Shown here: positions 5,021 to 61,488 of the stretch, piece after piece
Numbering within the stretch: position 1 is the first letter of the stretch
Layout of the letters: each line of letters starts with the position of its first letter
Assembly (NCBI GenBank): GCA_951406725.2
Contig: OX597830.1
Location: 30,380,001-30,444,000, forward strand
DNA from: Octopus vulgaris
Lineage: Eukaryota
DNA: 64,000 nucleotides
Reading direction: 5' to 3'
The notes under the pieces: generated by a model
Seen by the model: only the letters and a program-made list of their open reading frames with translations
What the model was told of the DNA's origin: nothing
Databases searched by the model: none
Translations under genes and position numbers: made by a program

Positions 5021-8000
5021 TTTGTAACAATCACTTGCCGAGACACACCCAGCGTCCTTGGCCGAGTGATTGATACGGGATGTTACAGTATAACTGAAAG
5101 CTTGGAGAGAGGAAGTGGCAGGGACAGTAGCGAAATATCTCCATGTAATACAACACAGACATTTAAATGGATGGGGTTTTTCTAAGGATGTGGGCAGTAG
5201 TTGTCAGCACAATCTTTTGGATTTCTCCTGGGATGTTATCTAGATGTTTTGTCATTCCTTTTTTATCATAGTTAGGGCACCTACAATAACAGGAACAGTT
5301 TTCGTTTTAAGATACTACATCTTTGTATTTCCATTTCCACGTCCTTATATTTACTTACTTTGCCAAATTCCTTTACAGATATATTTTTATCAGTGGGAAC
5401 ACTTACATCTACAAGTCTACGAGTATTTTCTTACTTGTCTTCAATAATTATGTCTGGTCGATTAGCCTGGATCATTCTGTCGGATTTGATAGGAAAATTT
5501 CAGAGGATAGTTACATTTTTAATTTCAATGACTGGCTCAGGATGATGTTCATACCTGTAAGCAGAAGCGCTGATTTTGTGGTGTTTAAACATTTTCCAAT
5601 GTAAATACTGTCCTACTCTATGGTGACGATTTTTGCATGCCTTTGGCGTCAGCACAGAACATCCCGAGACATGATGTCTATTGTTTCGTCAAATGTGTCT
5701 CAGAAAGTTAGCCTGGTAATTTTTTTTTTTTGTAAGCAAACTTTGATCTTGTGCCGCCAGTATGAAACCATCAGTCTCTGCCTTCAGTCCTGAACTTCTC
5801 AGCTACTGATGGGTTGTTGCTTGATCTACATCAGTATCTCGACTTCGTAGTATATACCGTCCAAGCAGAGGCTTCTGACTCCACCGTTCCTCAGTTTGTT
5901 TCTACCCGTTAATTTTTGCAGTCTGCTCGATCCATTTTGCTTATTTTGTGGCAGTGGTTCGTGGTTCCTCATCTAATTCAGGGTTAATGGTAAGTTCCCT
6001 TGCGAATTTGCAAGCCCACCTTGACAATAGAATGTAAATTTTTGCTGTTTTCGTGTTTGCATACAAGCAGCAGCATCTACTCCTCTATAGTAGATAAGAA
6101 CCTGTTCATTGGTATTGTGGAGGTCTTTTAGCGCAGTTCTGCCTGCATCATTCTTCTTCCCCATTATCTCTAGGTAGTTACAGACGATCAGCATCTGCTT
6201 CTGGGTGGAGCATGTTCTCAGATGTGAGTGGAGCTCTGTAAGATTCCAATTAATGATGTTAACACTATGTTGGACTACTGGAAGTGCCAGGGTGTTAATG
6301 GATTCGTTGCGATTTTTCGAGGTGAGTTCATTTTTTAGTATGTCTTTTCCTCCAGTAATATTTCTTTCTTATTTTTCCTTAATAATAGCATATTCTATAC
6401 CATCTCCTTTTACCCCCAGGTATTTATAACTTTCTTATGGATCAAGCTCCTTGATGGTAGCTTCGGTATCTAATTTAATGGAAGCTGTTTGCCTGTGCCT
6501 GCCTCTTATAAAAGTTGCTTTAGCACACTTATCAAAGCCAAAATCCATCCCGACGTTATTACTGAACTCTTTAACAGTTGTTAGCAGCCCTGCAAGCTCT
6601 TCTTTATTTCTGGCAAACAGCTTCAGATCGTCCATATAAAACACATAGTTTATTGTCGTATTATAAACTTTGAAGTTATTCTTAGTGTTATATAGTTCGT
6701 TTCAGTGTGGGAGCAAGGCCATAGAAAAGAGTTATGGGTAGAGGGAGTCACCTTGAAAGATGCCTCGTTTGATGATGTTGCTAGATTGGCTCATCCCAAG
6801 ATGTATACTCCACTTGGCGATACTGCCTTGTAAACATTTGGAGACGAAAGGAGATACTTTATATATCTCAAGGACCTTGAGTAGCAAATTATGTAGGGCA
6901 TTATCAAACGCTTTCCTGTAGTCTATCCATGCCATACTCAAGTTATTTTTGCTCTGGCAATTCGCTACAATCATCTTATTTATGAGTATTTGATATATGC
7001 GCTCATGTGAATTCCTTTTACGGCCGTTTTGAGCTTGTGGAAGGATAGATTTCTGTTCAAGGAAAGTGCATATTCTTTCAGTTAATAGGGGTGTGAGGAT
7101 CTTGTAAGTGTTGTTGAGACGTGTTATTGCTTAGTAGTTCTTTGGATTTTTGTGTCTTCAGTATTTGGTAGAAGGTATGTTGTTCCTTCAGTCAGCCAGG
7201 CAGGTATTTGCTCTGGGTTTTGGATGACATCATTTAGCGATGCAACGAAAATTTGGTGTACTTCTGTCAAACAATTCAGCCAGAATTTAGGAATCCGGTC
7301 CAATCCTAGGATCTTCCATTTGTGAGACTTCCTAAGAACACATCTTAACTCTTCTATTTCTATTGTCTCTCATTTCTGCTCTTCAACTTCATCCAGTCTC
7401 ACTTTCTCCTTTTCTATCCAGTGAGCTTCACCTTTATATATATATATATATATATATATATCTTCATATCTTCTTCCAGAACTCTTCTATTTCCTCAATC
7501 TTAGGTGGTTCCTTTACGTCTATCTTACTTTTGCCAATTTTCTTATAAAATTTCTTTGCATCCGTCTCGAATACATTGGTTTGTCCATAAAATTTTATTA
7601 TTTTATCATACCTTGAAACCCGTTGGGCTTTCAGCTGTATTCGCTGTTTCATTAGTTCCTTGGTTGCAGGGAGGTTTATAAAATCTTTGATCTTATATTT
7701 TTGCTTGATTTTTCTAATGCGTTTCGCCCTAACATTTACTCCTCACGCAAATTCATTGAGAACTGATACATCTGCCCGCAGAGACTCAATGCCATTTTGT
7801 ATTACTACTTTCCATTTAGGAAGTCTATTGACATCGTTGGTCCTTTTCCATATCGTCCTGATAACTAGTTGAGCAGTTACAACTTTAGAAGTGGAATAGA
7901 TGAGGTTATTTAAGGTTGTTAGGTCATTTCCCCTATTTCTTAAAATCTGTCTAAGACCAACATTATATATCATGATTATATTGTTGCTTTTTATGCTATT

Positions 8001-9272
8001 TGAGAGCTTTGGTAACGGTTCTCTATTGACCATGTTAGTAAACACAGTCTTGCTGAGTTCTCTCATAATATCTTGCTTTGTTTCTATGGCCTCTTTATTT
8101 TTCACCTCAAATTCTGTCATATCTATTCTGGTGTTCTTGAGGTAGATCTACTTTCTCCTCTTTTTCAGCATATTTGTTTTTCGTTATTCTTTCTTCAGTT
8201 TCTTCGTTGGCATGTGCTATTCATACACTGGGCTCTGTGCATCTCTTACCTATTTCATCTATATTGTTGCTGATTTCATTTGATATTTGTATCTCTCCCA
8301 TGAGATATTTGTGTCCTAATTTGGCTAATTTCAGTGTCAGTTAACTTTTTATTCTTAATGATGTCTCTACGTACACTACTTTATTTATTTGCATCTATAT
8401 ATCTGCCTACTAAGTTTCTCCATCAAATGTATGTTTGTACAGTGAGGTTTATTGTCAGAGGTTAGCTGGGCTGTATAGAAAGTATTCAACACATCTCTAT
8501 AATCCTCTCTAGTCTGTTTTATGCGTTTTACTTTAGGTGATGTTTTTGGTGGCGTCACTACAGGTCTAGGGTTAGGGTTATCCTGCTTCTGGGTACCTGA
8601 TAGTTCGTTTTTTTTTTTATTTTGAGAGTTTGTTCCAGCATCAGACCTTTCGACCCCAGTCTGGTTCCCCACTTGGTAACATAGTCCTTGTCTCGGGCGA
8701 TGACCGATCCGGCATGAGTTTGAGCTTGTCATTAAAGCTTTGACGGAGACAATAGTAGACGGGTCTGTTTGTTCAGAGTTGACTTCTTGACATGACACCG
8801 CTTCCTTGTTCTTCAAATGGATACATTTGTCATATAGTTGGTTAATAGATCGAAAATCGCTTTTTTTTTTTTTTATGGAAGCTATGTTTCCAGGCATAAC
8901 TGTTTAGCGAAGTTTTAAACTGAGTAACTGAGAAGTGGCTTTATTTTTGTTTGGTTCGGCGTCGCTCGTGACACGTGTTTTTCTTTTATTATTGTGTAGG
9001 CATGTAATTGGTGTATTTTTCCAGACTTCCTGGTACTAGTTTCGACTTCTTGCGTATATCGCATTGAGATACCGTGCATTCAAGAAAGAAACTACACATT
9101 ATAAAACAAAAATATTTGCGATGTTTTAGTTCCTTTGTTTTAACAGGACTTTTTCCATGGTTGTATTGCAAAGTTTTCCTTCAATCGCACCGATGTTATT
9201 GGATTAAGTTTATTTTGTGGAGAGAGCTTCTTAGTGTACATCCATGTTTTTATTTAGCCCAGAGTTAATTTG
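5021..9272 (-). mobile_element. near full-length decayed R4/Dong-clade non-LTR retrotransposon
   Basis: Collinear minus-strand ORF fragments: N-terminal KRIKQTREDYRDVL (8385-8897), EPPKIEEIEEFWKKI, AWIDYRKAFD and RGIFQGDSL (6732-6974), FYMDDLKLF..GMDFGFDKCA (6435-6644), then a C-terminal RLE region homologous to 60686-61183. Flanked by (TTA)n at 9275-9650 and (TTG/TCG)n at 4955-5020. Confidence 0.9.
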
Positions 9273-13717: not shown

Positions 13718-13852
13718 CATCCGCCCCAACGAATTTCCCGTAATATATCTACGGATAACAACAGGTAATCCAAACTGTACCGGTGCATTACTCATCATCT
13801 ATTTATACATTTTATATAATTTCTCCATTATATGTATATACACATATACATA

Positions 13853-14275
13853 TAGGCGCAGGCGTGGCTGTGTGGTAAGAAGCTTGCTTCCCAAGCACAT
13901 GGTTCCGGATTCAGTCCCACTGCCTGGCACATTAGGCAAGTGTCTTCTACTATAGCCTCGGGCCGACCAAAGCCTTGTGAGTGGATTTGGTAGACGAAAA
14001 CTAGAAAAAACCCGTCGTATTTATATGTGTGCATATATTTATGTGTATATGCCTTTGTGTGTATGTTTGTCCCCACCCACCAGCGCTTGACAACCGATGT
14101 TGGTGTGTTTACGTCCCCGAGACCTAGCAGTTCGCTAAAAGAGACCGATAGAATAAGTACCAGGTTCAGAAAGAATACTTTCTGGGGTAGATTTCTTTGA
14201 CTCAAAGGCGGTGCTCCAGCATGGCCGCAGTCAAAGGACTGAAACAAGTAACAGATTAAAACTAAAAAAGTAAAA
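13853..14275 (+). mobile_element. family-B tRNA-derived SINE (complete, with internal low-complexity tract)
   Basis: Head GGCGCAGGCGTGGCTGTGTGG (A box) and GGATTCAGTCCC (B box), body AAGCCTTGTGAGTGGATTTGGTAGACG, tail GGCGGTGCTCCAGCATGGCCGCAGTC..GAAACAAGTAA. More than 10 homologues occur in the window. Confidence 0.9.
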
Positions 14276-21027: not shown

Positions 21028-21980
21028 CAGTAGTTTTATTTTTATAACGTGCTTTCACTTCATTACCGAGCGCAACTCTGTGTGCCTTGGGTATGTACTG
21101 TGGTTTGCTGTGATGCTCTTATGGTTACTGTATTGAAAGTATTTTGCGTAGGATCGGTGCAGTGCCCAGTAGTACAATTTTCTGTATGTTGTATATATTT
21201 GTAAGTCCCGGTATTTGTTTGAATATTGTTTTATCATAACTAATGCGCCCACTATAATAAGAATTGTTTCTGTTTTTAGATTCCACATTCGAGTTACCTC
21301 TATTTCCAGGTCTTTGTATTTTGAAAGTTTCTCATTTCTTTTAGAGAAACATTATCATCTGCTGGTATTGATACATCAATTAGAAAGCAATTTTTTTTTC
21401 TCCATGATCTCTGACAACTATATTTGGTATGTTGGCCTTAATTTCTATATCTGTGTGTATTGGCATATCCCATAGTATGGTTACTTTCTCGTTTTCTGTG
21501 ACCTTTTCTGGCGTGTGCTTATACCATCTTTTTTTCTGTTGTTATTCCATAGTGTTGGCATAGCTTCCAGTGTATGTAGGTCCCACTTCTGTCGTGTCTG
21601 TGAATATATTCCTTCTTAGCCAGGACTGGGCAGCTAGAGATAATATGATTTATTATTTCTTGTCCATCTCCACATATTCTGCAGTTATTTGTTATGCTTT
21701 TTTTCATTATATGCTTTTGGTAATTTCTGGTGGGGAGGTTTTGGTCTTGTGCTGCAATTAAAAATCCTTCAGTATCTGCTTTGAGTCCTAAGCTTCTCAA
21801 CCATTGCTGGGATTTTTCTCTGTCTATTTCTTTTGCATTTAGTTTAGTCCAGTGTTTGCCATGAAGAGGTTTTTCTTGCCATCGTGTTTTGATAGTCCGT
21901 TGTTGCTCTAGTTTTAGTCTAGATTTCATTTGTTTTATAGTTTTTGATTGTTTCTTTTTTTTTCTTCTTCATATTTGTGG
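21028..21980 (-). mobile_element. 5'-truncated R4/Dong-clade LINE (zinc knuckle + RLE + 3' UTR)
   Basis: ORF 21519-21929 WQEKPLHG..AAQDQ..CRICG..HIISSC..RHD and ORF 21055-21288 MWNLKTETILIIVGAL. The 3' end runs into (TTA)n at 20895-21025. Confidence 0.92.
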
Positions 21981-28231: not shown

Positions 28232-29112
28232 TAGGAGGTGATATTAAAAAGTTCCCAGACTAGTTCTGTAGTGCACCAACAGATGGCAGCACACGGTTGC
28301 GTGCGCAGTGACAGCTAGCAGTGACTTTCATGAGGCAATGTGCCAAGTGACATCGCTGTGTTTACTTCGTGAGTTGTGAAATTTGTACTTTTGTGATCAC
28401 TTGTAAGCTGTAGTCTGCTATTTTGTCATGGACAGGAACCAAATTGAAATTTGACGGAGCCGAATTAAAATTTGAAAGAGCAGAATTGAAATTTGAAAGA
28501 GCCGAATTGAAATTTGAAAGAGCCGAATTGAAATTTGAAAGAGCCGAATTGAAATTTGAAAAGGCCGAACTGAAATTTGAAAGAGCCGAATTGAAATTTG
28601 AAAAAGCCGAATTGAAATTTGAAAGAGCCGAATTGAAATTTGAAAGAGCCGAATTGAAATTTGAAAGAGCCGAATTGAAATTTTGCGTTATAATTTGAAA
28701 GTCTGCTACAGAGATATTGGGTATGTTTCGGCGAAAGCGACCGGATCTGTGGAGCGAGAATTGGATTCTCCACTCGTGAGTTTTTCGCCAAAAACATGGT
28801 AATGCTTCCGTACATGCCCTATTCCCCAGATTTAGCACCCGCAAATTTTCATCTCTTCCCCCAAGTAGAAAATGCAGCTCAAAGGTCACTGTTTTAACAC
28901 CGTGATCGAGATCCAGAGCGAATCGCAGAAGGTCCTTGACTCGCTTACGGAAAACGACTTCCAGGCCTGATTCCAAAAGTGGCAGGAATGCTGCGACCGG
29001 TGTATTGCTGTGCAAGGTGACTGTTTCGGAGAAGATGGTGATGAAGCTTATGTAAATAAGTTATTTTTTATTAAGCATAACTAGTCCGGGAACCTTTTGA
29101 TACCATCTCGTA
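28232..29112 (+). mobile_element. internally deleted mariner (DD34D-type) transposon with TIRs
   Basis: TIRs TAGGAGGTGATATTAAAAAGTTCCCAGACTAGTT and reverse complement TACGAGATGGTATCAAAAGGTTCCCGGACTAGTT. Translation gives ERAELKFCV..KSATEILGMF, then REFFAKN..PYSPDLAPANFHLFPK*KMQLKG..FQKWQECCDRCIAVQGDCF. Confidence 0.92.
28442..28683 (+). repeat. 21-bp minisatellite (AATTGAAATTTGAAAGAGCCG) x ~11.5 inside the mariner transposase start
   Basis: Direct reading; translates as (AELKFER)n. Confidence 0.97.
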
Positions 29113-29264
29113 TAGGCTGCAGAATACGAAGAATTTTGTCAACAGTCTGTCGGCTTCCCAGTGGAACTCTCTAGAAAATACACTGTAGTTAACCTATCGA
29201 GATCAGGTAGCCATTTCAGGAAAATTTGAAACAGCCTTTTCTTAACATAATTCAATATATCTTT

Positions 29265-29480
29265 TTTCTTCTACTTGTTTCAGTCATTACACTCAGGCCA
29301 TGCTGGGGCACCACCTTGAAGAATTTTTAGTCGAATATATCGATCCCAGTACTTATTTTTTTAAAGCTTGGTACCTATTCTATCGGCTACTTATACCGAA
29401 CCGCTAAGTTGCGAAAACGTAAACACACCGAAACCGATTGTAAAGAGCCGGAGGGTGGAATAAACACAGACACAAAGGCA

Positions 29481-29534
<54 letters not shown>

Positions 29535-29735
29535 CTTATACATATACATACATATATATGTGTGTGTATGTGTGTGTGTGTACACGTACACACACATACC
29601 CTCAGTTTCCCTCTACCAAATTCATTCACAAGGTTTTGCTCAGCCCGGAGCTACAGTGGAAGATATTTGCCCAAGGTGCCACGGAACCATATGGTTGGGA
29701 AGCAAGCTTCTTACACAATCACACCTGCGCTTGCA
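29265..29735 (-). mobile_element. family-B SINE with internal (CA)n(TA)n
   Basis: Both halves are present on the minus strand. Confidence 0.82.
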
Positions 29736-29827
29736 TGACTAAATAACCAATGATTTATTTTTCTTCTTTCTGTATCTTTGTTTGAAAGAAACAGAGCAGC
29801 TTGATCGAACTGATTAAAGAACCAGAA

Positions 29828-30000
29828 GCCATATTTAAATAAGAAGAAATGACATTATTTACATTATTAACATTTGACGAATATTTGTCCTCATATTGTT
29901 TGTTGTTAACACAACGTTTCAGCTGATATTCCCTCCAGCCTTCATCAGGTGTCTTGGGGAAATTTCGAACCTGGCTTCTCATTCCTAAATAATAATAATA

Positions 30001-30037
<37 letters not shown>

Positions 30038-30111
30038 TCACTACTAGGAATCGAACTCGGAATCTTCGGATTAGTAGCCCGTGCTCTTAACCACTACGCC
30101 ATATTGAAATA
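29828..30111 (-). mobile_element. composite short element: tRNA-derived Pol III head + (AAT)n + hammerhead ribozyme
   Basis: A box TGGCGTAGTGG (30091-30101), B box GAGTTCGATTCC (30047-30058), hammerhead at 29908-29953. A 14-bp direct repeat with 1 mismatch lies at 29828-29841 and 30098-30111. Confidence 0.7.
29908..29953 (-). ncRNA. intact minimal type I hammerhead ribozyme
   Basis: GACAC-CTGATGA-A-GGCTGG agggaata TCAGCT-GAAA-CG-TT-GTGTT: 5-bp stem I, 6-bp stem II, palindromic AACGTT. Confidence 0.8.
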
Positions 30112-30654
30112 TAGAACTGAATAAGAAATGATTTGGGAGATGATTCTACATATAAACTTAGACGGAGCAGATGAAGTGGCTCCATCAGATTTGACAAGAA
30201 AAGCAGGTAATGTCATTAAGAAAGGGACGTAAGGAACAATCCCCTGTGCCACATGTATCTGAAGTACACTTAATAACTGTATATATATATATAATAACAG
30301 TGGTAGCACTGTCATTAATCCAGTAAATTTGCAGATGAGTGAGTTACACAACTCTGATGATTAAGCAATGCAAATTTACTTTTGTTAATGAAACGTGATT
30401 AAGATGATGTAATTCAATATACAAGTAAACTCTCCTGTTTCGTTTTCTAAATTAGTACTCTGTGTCTTTCTCAACTTCGTGTTCCATTTAAATGAAACAT
30501 GGGCTCATAATATGAGTTCACCTCATGGTTGCCCATCAGATATATGGGAATACTCATGGAGTTCTAAGTACTGGCTATTTGCTATGCAATTTGAAATTAA
30601 ATACATACATATATGTATGTATTTATGTATGTATGTATGTGTATATATATGGAA

Positions 30655-33114: not shown

Positions 33115-33275
33115 TCTCTCTCTGTTTATTTTCTCTAATTCCTTTGTGTTGAAGAGCAAAGGCTCGAAACTTAAAAGACTTTTCCATTCTTCCTGAACGT
33201 CAAACTAATACACTTGTTTATTTGTTGTTGTTTTTTGTTCATACACTTGTCTTTTGTTTTTCTATAAATTTAGAC
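33115..33275 (+). mobile_element. PLE pLTR-like fragment with hammerhead-like motif (33142-33177)
   Basis: CTTT-GTGTTGA-A-GAGC aaag GCTC-GAAA-CT-TA-AAAG; homologous to 14310-14460. Confidence 0.5.
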
Positions 33276-46667: not shown

Positions 46668-46684
46668 TCACTATCACTTTTTTA

Positions 46685-47070
46685 TAGGCGCAAGAGTGGG
46701 TGTGTGGTAAGTAGCTTCCTTAACAGCCACATGGTTCCGGGTTCAGTCCCACTGCCTGTCACCTTGGGCAAGTGTCTTCTACTATAGCCTCGAGCCGACC
46801 AAAGCCTTGTGAGTGGATTTGGTAGACGGAAACTAAAAGAAGCCCGTCGTATATATATATATGTGTATGTGTGTGTGGGTGTGTGTTTGTTTGTATATGT
46901 TTGTGTGTCTGTGTCTGTGTTTGCCCCAACATAGCGGTTCGGCAAAAGAGACCAATAGAATAAGTACTAGACTTACAAAGAATAAGTCCTGGGGTCGATT
47001 TGCTCGACTAAAAGGCGGTGCTCCAGCATGGCCACAGTCAAATGATTGAAACAAGTAAAAGAGTAAGGAG
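46685..47070 (+). mobile_element. family-B SINE
   Basis: Head AGGCGCAAGAGTGG..GGGTTCAGTCCC; tail GAAACAAGTAAAAGAG. Confidence 0.9.
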
Positions 47071-47255
47071 TAAGTCTGCCAGCTTGCTGCCTTAAAACAC
47101 TATGGAGTTTGTCATGAGTGAAGTAACTTTGATCATAGATGTGTTCGGTCAGAGCTGACCTTGAACTAAACAAAAATAAAACGTGGAAACGTATATGAAC
47201 GCAGAAGTTAAAGAGAAAGTTTCATTTCTGTTGTAATAAATGAATAGAAACTAAT

Positions 47256-58772: not shown

Positions 58773-59223
58773 GATCATGCCTCCCCATTGATATAACTGT
58801 CCCAATCGACATAAATGTATCTGTGAAGAACTACCAAAAACTGAGCAAGTATAAGGATCTTGAAACAAATTGGCAAAATGTGGAACCTCAAGACTAAATC
58901 AATATCTGTTATCATAGGTGCCCTTGGAATGATAGGAAAAGTGGCTGGTTGCTACCTAGCTCAGATACCAGGAAACCCCAAAAAGGCAGAAACTACCATA
59001 GGAACTACCCATATCCTACGTAAGATACTATGTAATCTCAAATTTTAAAACAATCTCGTAATTTTCTTGTTTTCTTAAACATTCTCTAGAACAATACTAT
59101 GTGCAAAAACAAATATATGATACCCCAGGCATAACACCAGCATGAACTTTTAACTTGTTGTCTCTTGAGATCTCTGGGTGAGACTTGGAGACAACTTGTA
59201 AAAATGCAAAGCTCAAGTCAAAC
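58772..59223 (+). mobile_element. short 3' fragment of an R4/Dong-clade LINE inside (TAA)n
   Basis: IDITVPIDINVSVKNYQKLSKYKDL and KMWNLKTKSISVIIGALGMI (RLE C-terminus). (TAA)n at 58723-58771 and 59225-59305. Confidence 0.88.

Positions 59224-61488
<2,265 letters not shown>

Follow-up and report, generated by a model that had tools for sequence, protein, structure and literature searches.

A dispersed octopus SINE family with a tRNA-derived head and a Penelope-type minimal hammerhead, possibly inserted as uncut linear RNA

The window analyzed in this study, 64,000 nucleotides of Octopus vulgaris DNA (contig OX597830.1), contains a short tRNA-headed element on its minus strand. The element and its parts are as follows, in window coordinates.

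29852 to 30104, minus strand: element copy, 253 bp, delimited by depth steps and loose ends in four of four runs
30036 to 30104, minus strand: tRNA-derived head, with a sub-threshold Rfam tRNA match at 30036 to 30108
30091 to 30101, minus strand: Pol III A box, called from the sequence by the A box consensus
30047 to 30058, minus strand: Pol III B box, 32 nt past the A box, called from the sequence by the B box consensus
29984 to 30037, minus strand: (AAT)n/(TAT)n linker with a long predicted hairpin (inverted repeat I1; paired in the minimum free energy [MFE] fold of the whole unit)
29908 to 29953, minus strand: minimal type I hammerhead motif of the Penelope kind, from motif coordinates, fitting the consensus in the supplement of PMC4209133
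29852 to 29874, minus strand: 3' tail of 9-nt tandem units of the AAATAATGT type, from the sequence and the clustering of family 3' ends there
29828 to 29851, minus strand: probable target site duplication (TSD), 3' copy, with a 14-bp core at 29828 to 29841 and single-copy depth
30098 to 30116, minus strand: probable TSD, 5' copy, the last 7 bases of which are the start of the head (5' microhomology)

The preliminary description of this DNA had placed an A box, a tRNA-like arm, a B box, a linker, and a hammerhead on the minus strand, and all of these were found in that order. It had also noted that TTTT is absent from this strand across the unit, which was borne out: the first four-T run occurs only at 29417, and the studied copy is without a terminator for 435 nt. 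The family to which the copy belongs extends beyond it by ~10 nt at the 5' end and ~7 nt at the 3' end. No second copy of the head, the hammerhead part, or the tail was detected by BLAST within the window. The element is short (253 bp, thus below 1 kb) and non-coding, and it has a 9-mer tail and a duplication of 14 to 24 bp, the latter known from one copy; on these points of size and tail/TSD, it is a tRNA-derived SINE as defined in SINEBase (PMC3531059). Here and below, cited papers are drawn upon for those portions of each that were available. Elsewhere in the window, 28414 to 28698 is occupied by a tandem array of 21-bp units that has an open frame (AELKFER repeats) and may be either a minisatellite or a coding repeat.

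The match of the head to the Rfam tRNA model was full-length and scored 17.5 bits (E value of 1.1) against a gathering score of 29, while ARAGORN reported 0 tRNA genes. The head is presumed to resemble tRNA-Arg. The linker had been described as (AAT)n; an AAT-type repeat is present, but it is not a plain one, being part of a 25-bp, 88% complementary hairpin (inverted repeat I1, 25 nt) that is closed on both sides by non-repeat bases. Rfam matches to microRNA and snoRNA families were far under their gathering scores and arose from this AT-rich linker. In the DNA consensus, the 5' end of the family (30101 to 30104 and beyond) carries a short palindromic cap, GCCC and GGGC separated by 2 bases, with ATAT on both sides. 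A head-to-head inverted pair centered on this palindrome was observed in 251 and 184 RNA reads, and the palindrome may represent either a fixed leader hairpin or a fold-back made at insertion.

In the hammerhead motif, stem I is formed by 29953 to 29949 with 29912 to 29908 (5 bp, one G-U) and stem II by 29940 to 29935 with 29926 to 29921 (6 bp, two G-U). The core CUGAUGA occupies 29948 to 29942, followed by an unpaired A at 29941, and GAAA occupies 29920 to 29917. After GAAA comes C-G-U-U, and the putative cleavage would follow U29913 of a GUU triplet, at site 29913/29912. The motif had been presented as a fully paired minimal hammerhead. This holds for stems I and II but not for stem III, which is a self-complementary ACGU without a loop and can therefore pair only between two molecules (intermolecular duplex, -5.7 kcal/mol). 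Minimal hammerheads of Penelope-like elements (PLEs) were described by Cervera and De la Pena in 2014 as having a short helix I, a long helix II, an unpaired base 5' of helix II, a G10.1-C11.1 pair, and a palindromic 15.2-16.2 (PMC4209133). The octopus motif fits every point of that description, including the >80% consensus, and, judged from its sequence, it belongs to the minimal Penelope type and is not a canonical hammerhead. When such PLE motifs were assayed in vitro, a single motif showed no cleavage and dimers were weakly cleaved (PMC4209133). Folded alone, a 56-nt piece of the element has the hammerhead close to its MFE. The hammerhead was not the predicted fold of a 63-nt piece (z of -0.92), and in the 253-nt unit the predicted pairing probability was 0.0 for stem I and ~0.02 for stem II.

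The disfavored fold in the whole unit and the lack of any match to an Rfam hammerhead family would be compatible with a chance hammerhead-like string adjoining a tRNA pseudogene. A hammerhead descriptor was run on the window and on 200 dinucleotide shuffles of it, a match being counted as strong when stem II had at least 6 bp and stem I at least 5 bp. Two matches were obtained in the 64-kb window (29948 and 10338) against a shuffle mean of 0.01, and a match as strong as the studied hammerhead occurred in 0 of the 200 shuffles. The motif also agrees with the published PLE consensus and is found in thousands of contigs, the majority of which pair stem II better than the studied copy does. The shuffle test and the family-wide presence refute a chance origin, the probability of which is put close to nil.

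Three other CUGANGA...GAAA motifs were noted in the window, at ~10338 (minus strand), 14352 (plus strand), and 48859 (minus strand). The first of them passes the hammerhead descriptor, the second has a second copy at 33117 to 33216, and the segments of both reach (TA)n ~100 nt further on. All three are probably the ends of other Penelope-like families. The studied element showed no sequence likeness to them, its 3' part aligning with these ends no better than shuffles did.

For the family analysis, 24 public runs were sampled for words of the element, and 14 runs under five organism labels were found to contain 34 to 62% of the words. Six RNA runs (X15 to X20) with 7 to 10% of the words were left out. 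Four runs were compared at 85% likeness, namely, the DNA contig sets X1 (organism A, possibly the source of the window itself) and X7 (organism D) and the raw RNA runs X22 and X23 (both organism D). Contigs matching the element numbered 14,545 in X1 and 16,653 in X7. Summed depth was 17 to 27 (X1) and 55 to 65 (X7) in the flanks, 0.43 million and 1.44 million in the head, and up to 3.2 million and 6.5 million in the hammerhead-tail part. This gives a crude copy estimate of 1.1 × 10^5 to 1.6 × 10^5 for the hammerhead-tail part and ~2 × 10^4 for the head, although summed depth is no true copy number and could be inflated 31-fold by overlapping short contigs; after 31-fold deflation, the head count is still ~700. 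The family thus comprises thousands to about 10^5 copies, and, with thousands of contigs in two DNA runs, the earlier proposal of a non-autonomous retroelement with a Pol III-type head was upheld.

The borders of the family were sharp, at 30104 (5') and at 29852 to 29860 (3'). Contig ends at 30104 numbered 173 in X1 and 181 in X7, and ends at 29852 to 29860 numbered at least 374 and at least 267, respectively, among the four positions listed per run; the 3' clusters in the DNA runs fell at 29852, 29854, 29855, and 29860. Since the borders lie at the tRNA start and in the 9-mer tail, the hammerhead is well inside the family unit. The loose ends at both DNA borders agreed with one another to only 0.41 to 0.48. 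Those beside the tail were A-rich on the plus strand (agreement of only 0.44), which may be what is left of a U-run terminator that source copies carried. The family is interspersed and not tandem, with single-copy flanks at the studied locus and head-to-tail joints rare among those listed.

Among the variants listed, the studied copy differs from the family majority at 11 of ~195 non-repeat positions, one of the differences being seen in RNA only. One X7 contig, which has 16 differences, spans 34 bases of the head and 156 of the flank, and organism D therefore has the insertion as well. The copy is an old one that stands about 6% away from the family majority and also occurs in a second organism. 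At the base of stem II, 69 to 73% of the family has G-C, the conserved G10.1-C11.1 pair, and the G-U of the studied copy is consequently its own CpG decay. No variant in CUGAUGA or stem I was found among the 40 variants listed of 80, and the hammerhead was intact in the source copies. CpG decay was 13 to 15% inside the hammerhead palindrome versus 11 to 22% at CpGs elsewhere. As decay is the same inside and outside, selection on the ribozyme in the genomic copies was rejected.

A full-library search with the translated 44-residue 3' part returned 20 protein matches, including a UniRef record of Octopus bimaculoides at 81% identity. One match (P0123), which had no matched stretch, was dropped as a repetitive artifact. 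The translated head was present in none of the 20, a weak negative because most of the open reading frames begin only downstream of the linker, at an ATG. Nothing was found when the translated unit was used in word-index protein searches. Exact-pattern scans for copies gave 0 hits in metagenome contigs and 0 in prokaryote genomes; a single exact-pattern match in a viral contig, where the rest of the element is absent, was taken as chance.

Chance nesting of the two halves at the studied locus had been named beforehand as the case that would speak against a head and hammerhead forming one unit. In the comparison, reads were cut at the linker repeat (29982 to 30040), so the reads and contigs that do cross it show that linkage occurs, rather than the share of heads that have it. 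Approximately 90 RNA reads from X22 and ~30 from X23 crossed the linker, with ~45 and ~18 start places, respectively. Each carried at least six other differences, and RNA depth in the flanks was 0 (0.17 in one bin), so that these reads derive from other loci; they could stem from few of them. DNA contigs likewise joined the head to the tail part, from 29875 to 30087 and from 29953 to 30079 (internal deletions or inversions). The halves are therefore linked beyond the studied locus, and nesting there alone does not apply.

Depth in the hammerhead part nevertheless exceeded that in the head by 4.5- to 7.4-fold in DNA and 2.3-fold in RNA, so that head-bearing copies may be a minority. Some head depth was probably lost at the 85% cutoff, the head being shorter and CpG-rich. 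Three headless copies were found among the protein matches, one (P0132) directly after a LINE reverse transcriptase (RT) fragment and two (P0127 and P0135) after unrelated sequence, and such copies are read as 5'-truncated, perhaps by stalling at the linker hairpin. A further match, P0140, opens with consecutive Met codons immediately ahead of the hammerhead-tail module, as would be expected if its linker were built from a different triplet. The depth ratio and the headless copies could also reflect two families that are sometimes nested, a simple tRNA-(AAT)n SINE serving as a microsatellite target into which an abundant Penelope 3' remnant was inserted, with the composite as a minor by-product. 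The insertion bias of PLEs toward microsatellites (bioRxiv 2021.04.23.441226) would suit this. However, no AAT tract lies 3' of the element here, a single duplication encloses the whole unit, and the linker pairs with itself through bases that include non-repeat ones from both halves. In addition, the order of the halves is unchanged in the reads and contigs that connect them at other loci, and contig ends at the 5' border amount to about half to two-thirds of those at the 3' border among the positions listed. Two nested families are accordingly regarded as very unlikely.

The 14-bp direct repeat of the preliminary description was confirmed at 29828 to 29841 and 30098 to 30111 (93% alike). If one gap is allowed, its length grows to ~18 bp, and perhaps to 24 bp, at which it would reach the family border. 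It had been read as either a TSD or a head-to-tail junction. The 3' copy lies 10 bases beyond the 3' border of the family, where depth in X1 was 20.3 (29822 to 29839); being in single-copy DNA, it is not a head-to-tail junction, and that reading was rejected. The repeat looks like a TSD, probably one with 5' microhomology at a slightly truncated insertion, as seen in this one copy. Separately, a 13-letter word was noted just past the tail in RNA reads that number in the hundreds and come from a single locus elsewhere (positions 29854 and 29863 in X22 and X23). The same word recurs in opposite orientation in the upstream flank of the studied copy, at 30107 to 30119, either by chance or through a target site preference.

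RNA reads matching the element amounted to 6,639 of 12.9 million in X22 and 5,143 of 12.0 million in X23. Of these, 51 to 52% were on one strand, and 74 to 75% continued into unlike sequence; the reads represent copies inside longer transcripts. No discrete Pol III transcript was seen in the two runs, which are unstranded in effect and showed no pile of starts. Neither a pile-up of RNA ends, including at 29913/29912, nor a frequent fixed back-joint such as a circle would give was found in X22 or X23. These libraries consist of 150-nt paired cDNA, of which ~6% per run was read (in X23, moreover, 31 repeat-associated joints were discarded), and they are ill suited to short Pol III RNAs or circles, so that the RNA negative is a weak one.

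These data bear on the proposal that the element is a retrozyme yielding circular RNA. In a retrozyme of the Sm-alpha kind, tandem arrays would be transcribed by Pol III into multimeric RNA, cut by dimeric hammerheads into monomers that circularize, and then reverse transcribed. The palindromic stem III suits dimer cleavage, and a type I hammerhead, albeit minimal, is present in the unit. A few head-to-tail joints do exist, one in X22 RNA (30100 to 29854, 2 reads, 26 letters between, the sole such RNA joint listed) and one in X7 DNA (30104 to 29859, 22 letters between, among 15 of 46 joints listed), and one joint falls exactly at 29912, the first base past the cleavage site. Five of the translated matches (P0131, P0133, P0137, P0139, and P0141) carry a related hammerhead-tail segment at 43 to 46% identity, in ~43-codon units that are mostly head-to-tail, on long contigs: two to three tandem units in P0131, P0133, P0139, and P0141, and two units in P0137. 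On their translated sequences, these may belong to a tandem, retrozyme-like sister family. Against this, cut monomers or circles as templates would give permuted copies or starts at 29912, whereas the family in fact begins at the tRNA start and ends in the tail. Depth shows no step at the cleavage site, and the 6,639 and 5,143 reads contain no end pile or frequent back-joint, weak as that negative is. Consecutive hammerheads in tandem units are not evident, with one copy in the window, family borders that give way to unlike flanks, and few tandem joints listed, although rare arrays may exist. Known retrozymes use canonical hammerheads in tandem and seem promoterless (PMC7761336, PMC7229834). 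The retrozyme side of the preliminary description was thus not sustained, and an Sm-alpha-like cycle is considered highly doubtful for this family.

The data are best explained, with a probability slightly above one-half (about 0.52), by a dispersed octopus family of tRNA-SINEs of ~250 to 270 bp with a Penelope-like 3' module that inserts as uncut linear RNA, with a Penelope-like RT as its most likely partner. Source copies would be transcribed by Pol III from the internal A and B boxes. Given the architecture and the published tests on other minimal hammerheads, the loopless GUU-site motif would be nearly silent in a monomer, and the RNA would stay whole. An RT supplied in trans would then begin at the 3' tail of the RNA and copy it into a target rich in AT, with a duplication of ~14 to 24 bp as the result; the borders of such copies are observed in the family and the TSD in one copy. 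The partner would most likely be a Penelope-like RT that reads the 3' module as its own end. Many copies would stop early, often near the linker hairpin, to leave headless copies like the three observed. Inserted copies then decay neutrally, as observed at CpG sites.

With respect to the partner enzyme, the 3' half (the minimal hammerhead and ~60 nt ending in 9-mers) appears from its sequence to be of the kind found in Penelope terminal repeats. In two X7 contigs, a piece of the 3' terminus stands inverted at the 5' end of a sense copy, to which it is fused (29886 joined to 30106 and 29912 joined to 30100, on opposite strands); each joint is a single contig among 15 of 46 joints listed. An inverted 3' fragment at the 5' end is frequent in PLE insertions (Craig et al., bioRxiv 2021.04.23.441226). 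The motif type and these two contigs together point to a PLE partner. No autonomous PLE reading frame with this 3' end was found in the protein searches.

A tandem-repeat tail and a long TSD are equally typical of LINE-driven SINEs. The element could accordingly be an ordinary one, in which a LINE RT (R4/Dong-like or RTE) reads the 9-mer tail and the hammerhead is a passenger captured once from Penelope. The short tandem tail with staggered 3' ends and long TSD fits this, as does the equal CpG decay inside and outside the palindrome (13 to 15% versus 11 to 22%), which gives no sign of selection on the ribozyme. RT-bearing LINE fragments also lie beside (AAT)n tracts in the window. These derive from a 5'-truncated non-LTR retrotransposon, presumably R4/Dong-like, at 59182 to 61183 (plus strand), 21055 to 21968 (minus strand), and 6732 to 8903 (minus strand), with RVT_1 and a zinc-binding region. 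It starts directly after an (AAT)n tract and has an open frame of ~450 codons, and a 97% identical protein is present in ENA; no named close relative of its RT was found by protein search. The 3' part of the studied element aligned with one LINE 3' end in the window at a score of 47, which was reached by 1 of 200 shuffles and came largely from AAT-rich sequence, whereas the score with the other LINE 3' end was equaled by 93 of 200. Penelope and Dong-R4 expansions are reported in octopus, where RTE-BovB is abundant and SINEs make up ~40% of transposable elements (Marino et al., PMC8967140). Set against a LINE partner are the core and both stems, which are intact in the family majority, and the two contigs with inverted 3' fragments of the PLE type. 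A LINE-driven SINE is considered unlikely, though it keeps a real share of the probability. The more specific form of the preferred Penelope reading is that the SINE is served by a Penelope-like, telomerase-related RT, that its hammerhead fold is kept as a recognition or priming signal and not as a cutter, and that the family, a tRNA promoter joined to a pLTR end, numbers 10^4 to 10^5 copies; this is put forward tentatively, at rather less than even odds.

The accepted view is that SINEs borrow the 3' ends of LINEs; a hammerhead end as the sole non-tRNA module would point to a partnership between a SINE and a PLE. The role of the barely active minimal hammerheads of PLEs has been described as unclear (bioRxiv 2021.04.23.441226, PMC4209133), and, if the Penelope RT reading is true, the element would be a natural minimal substrate of 250 nt for asking what they do. 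One large octopus repeat family would then carry a ribozyme fold of which no report was found in the literature searched. If the partner is a LINE, the element is of lesser interest, as a SINE that took its body from the end of a Penelope element.

The novelty of the combination had been overstated, as tRNA-derived, Pol III-transcribed SINEs with a hammerhead are already described in Schistosoma. Sm-alpha and Sj-alpha have a tRNA-derived head (tRNA-Gln in Schistosoma mansoni), with the promoter followed by the hammerhead, are apparently transcribed by Pol III, and are present as tens of thousands of hammerhead copies (PMC2770079, PMC6765202). Compared by description and not by sequence, the octopus element resembles them in its tRNA-derived head and in the order of promoter and hammerhead. 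In Sm-alpha, however, which is often tandem, the hammerhead is canonical and active and releases copies from RNA multimers (sources including PMC4209133), whereas the octopus element has the minimal PLE type with a GUU site, copies that appear mostly dispersed, and borders away from the cleavage site.

With PLEs, which carry such hammerheads in their pLTRs, the octopus element shares the motif architecture and, in two contigs, the inverted 3' fragment at the 5' end. Unlike PLEs, it has no open reading frame and no pLTR tandem, and a tRNA head takes the place of the PLE body and promoter. Animal retrozymes are tandem, yield circles, seem promoterless, and are tied to PLE pLTRs (bioRxiv 2026.07.22.740005, PMC7761336, PMC7229834). 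In the available portions of these sources, the metazoan non-LTR retrozymes of coral, mussel, axolotl, and Xenopus are, like the octopus element, AT-rich and non-coding units of 150 to 450 bp with a type I hammerhead and longer TSDs, and their PLE origin is proposed or shown. The octopus element differs from them in its internal Pol III-type promoter and in behaving as a monomeric linear SINE.

Three octopus tRNA-derived SINEs, OK, OR1, and OR2, are said to have been described by Ohshima and Okada in 1994. OR1 and OR2 are reportedly tRNA-Arg-like, and OR2 is reportedly ~270 bp long, as is the studied element. The chance that the studied family is one of OK, OR1, and OR2 is about one in three. 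The repeats neighboring the studied element are taken to resemble octopus SINEs. Among them, a second, far more frequent SINE starts ~110 bp downstream of the element (~29250 to 29740, minus strand; further copies at 13829 to 14261 and 46683 to 47073), and it is presumed to have a CORE-like body and may be OR1 or OR2. OR1 and OR2 are called CORE-SINEs (PMC4824008 and PMC4758252, respectively), and the portions available of these two papers make no mention of a hammerhead in either. In a comparison by description only, the studied element differs from them in lacking, by eye and against the CORE motif as remembered, a CORE-like body.

A 10-nt A-box motif did not occur in the readable supplementary files of two papers on SINEs, and the available portions of PMC10886601, PMC6962438, and PMC9115989 contain nothing on the studied family. 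Automatic repeat libraries surely contain a family of this size. Searches of the open-license literature, a body separate from Repbase, Dfam, SINEBase, and subscription papers, turned up neither a hammerhead-bearing octopus SINE nor a tRNA-SINE that ends in a PLE tail. Next to the Schistosoma SINEs, the PLEs, and the animal retrozymes, what is new in the octopus element is a tRNA-SINE that carries a hammerhead of the Penelope minimal type and apparently spreads uncut.
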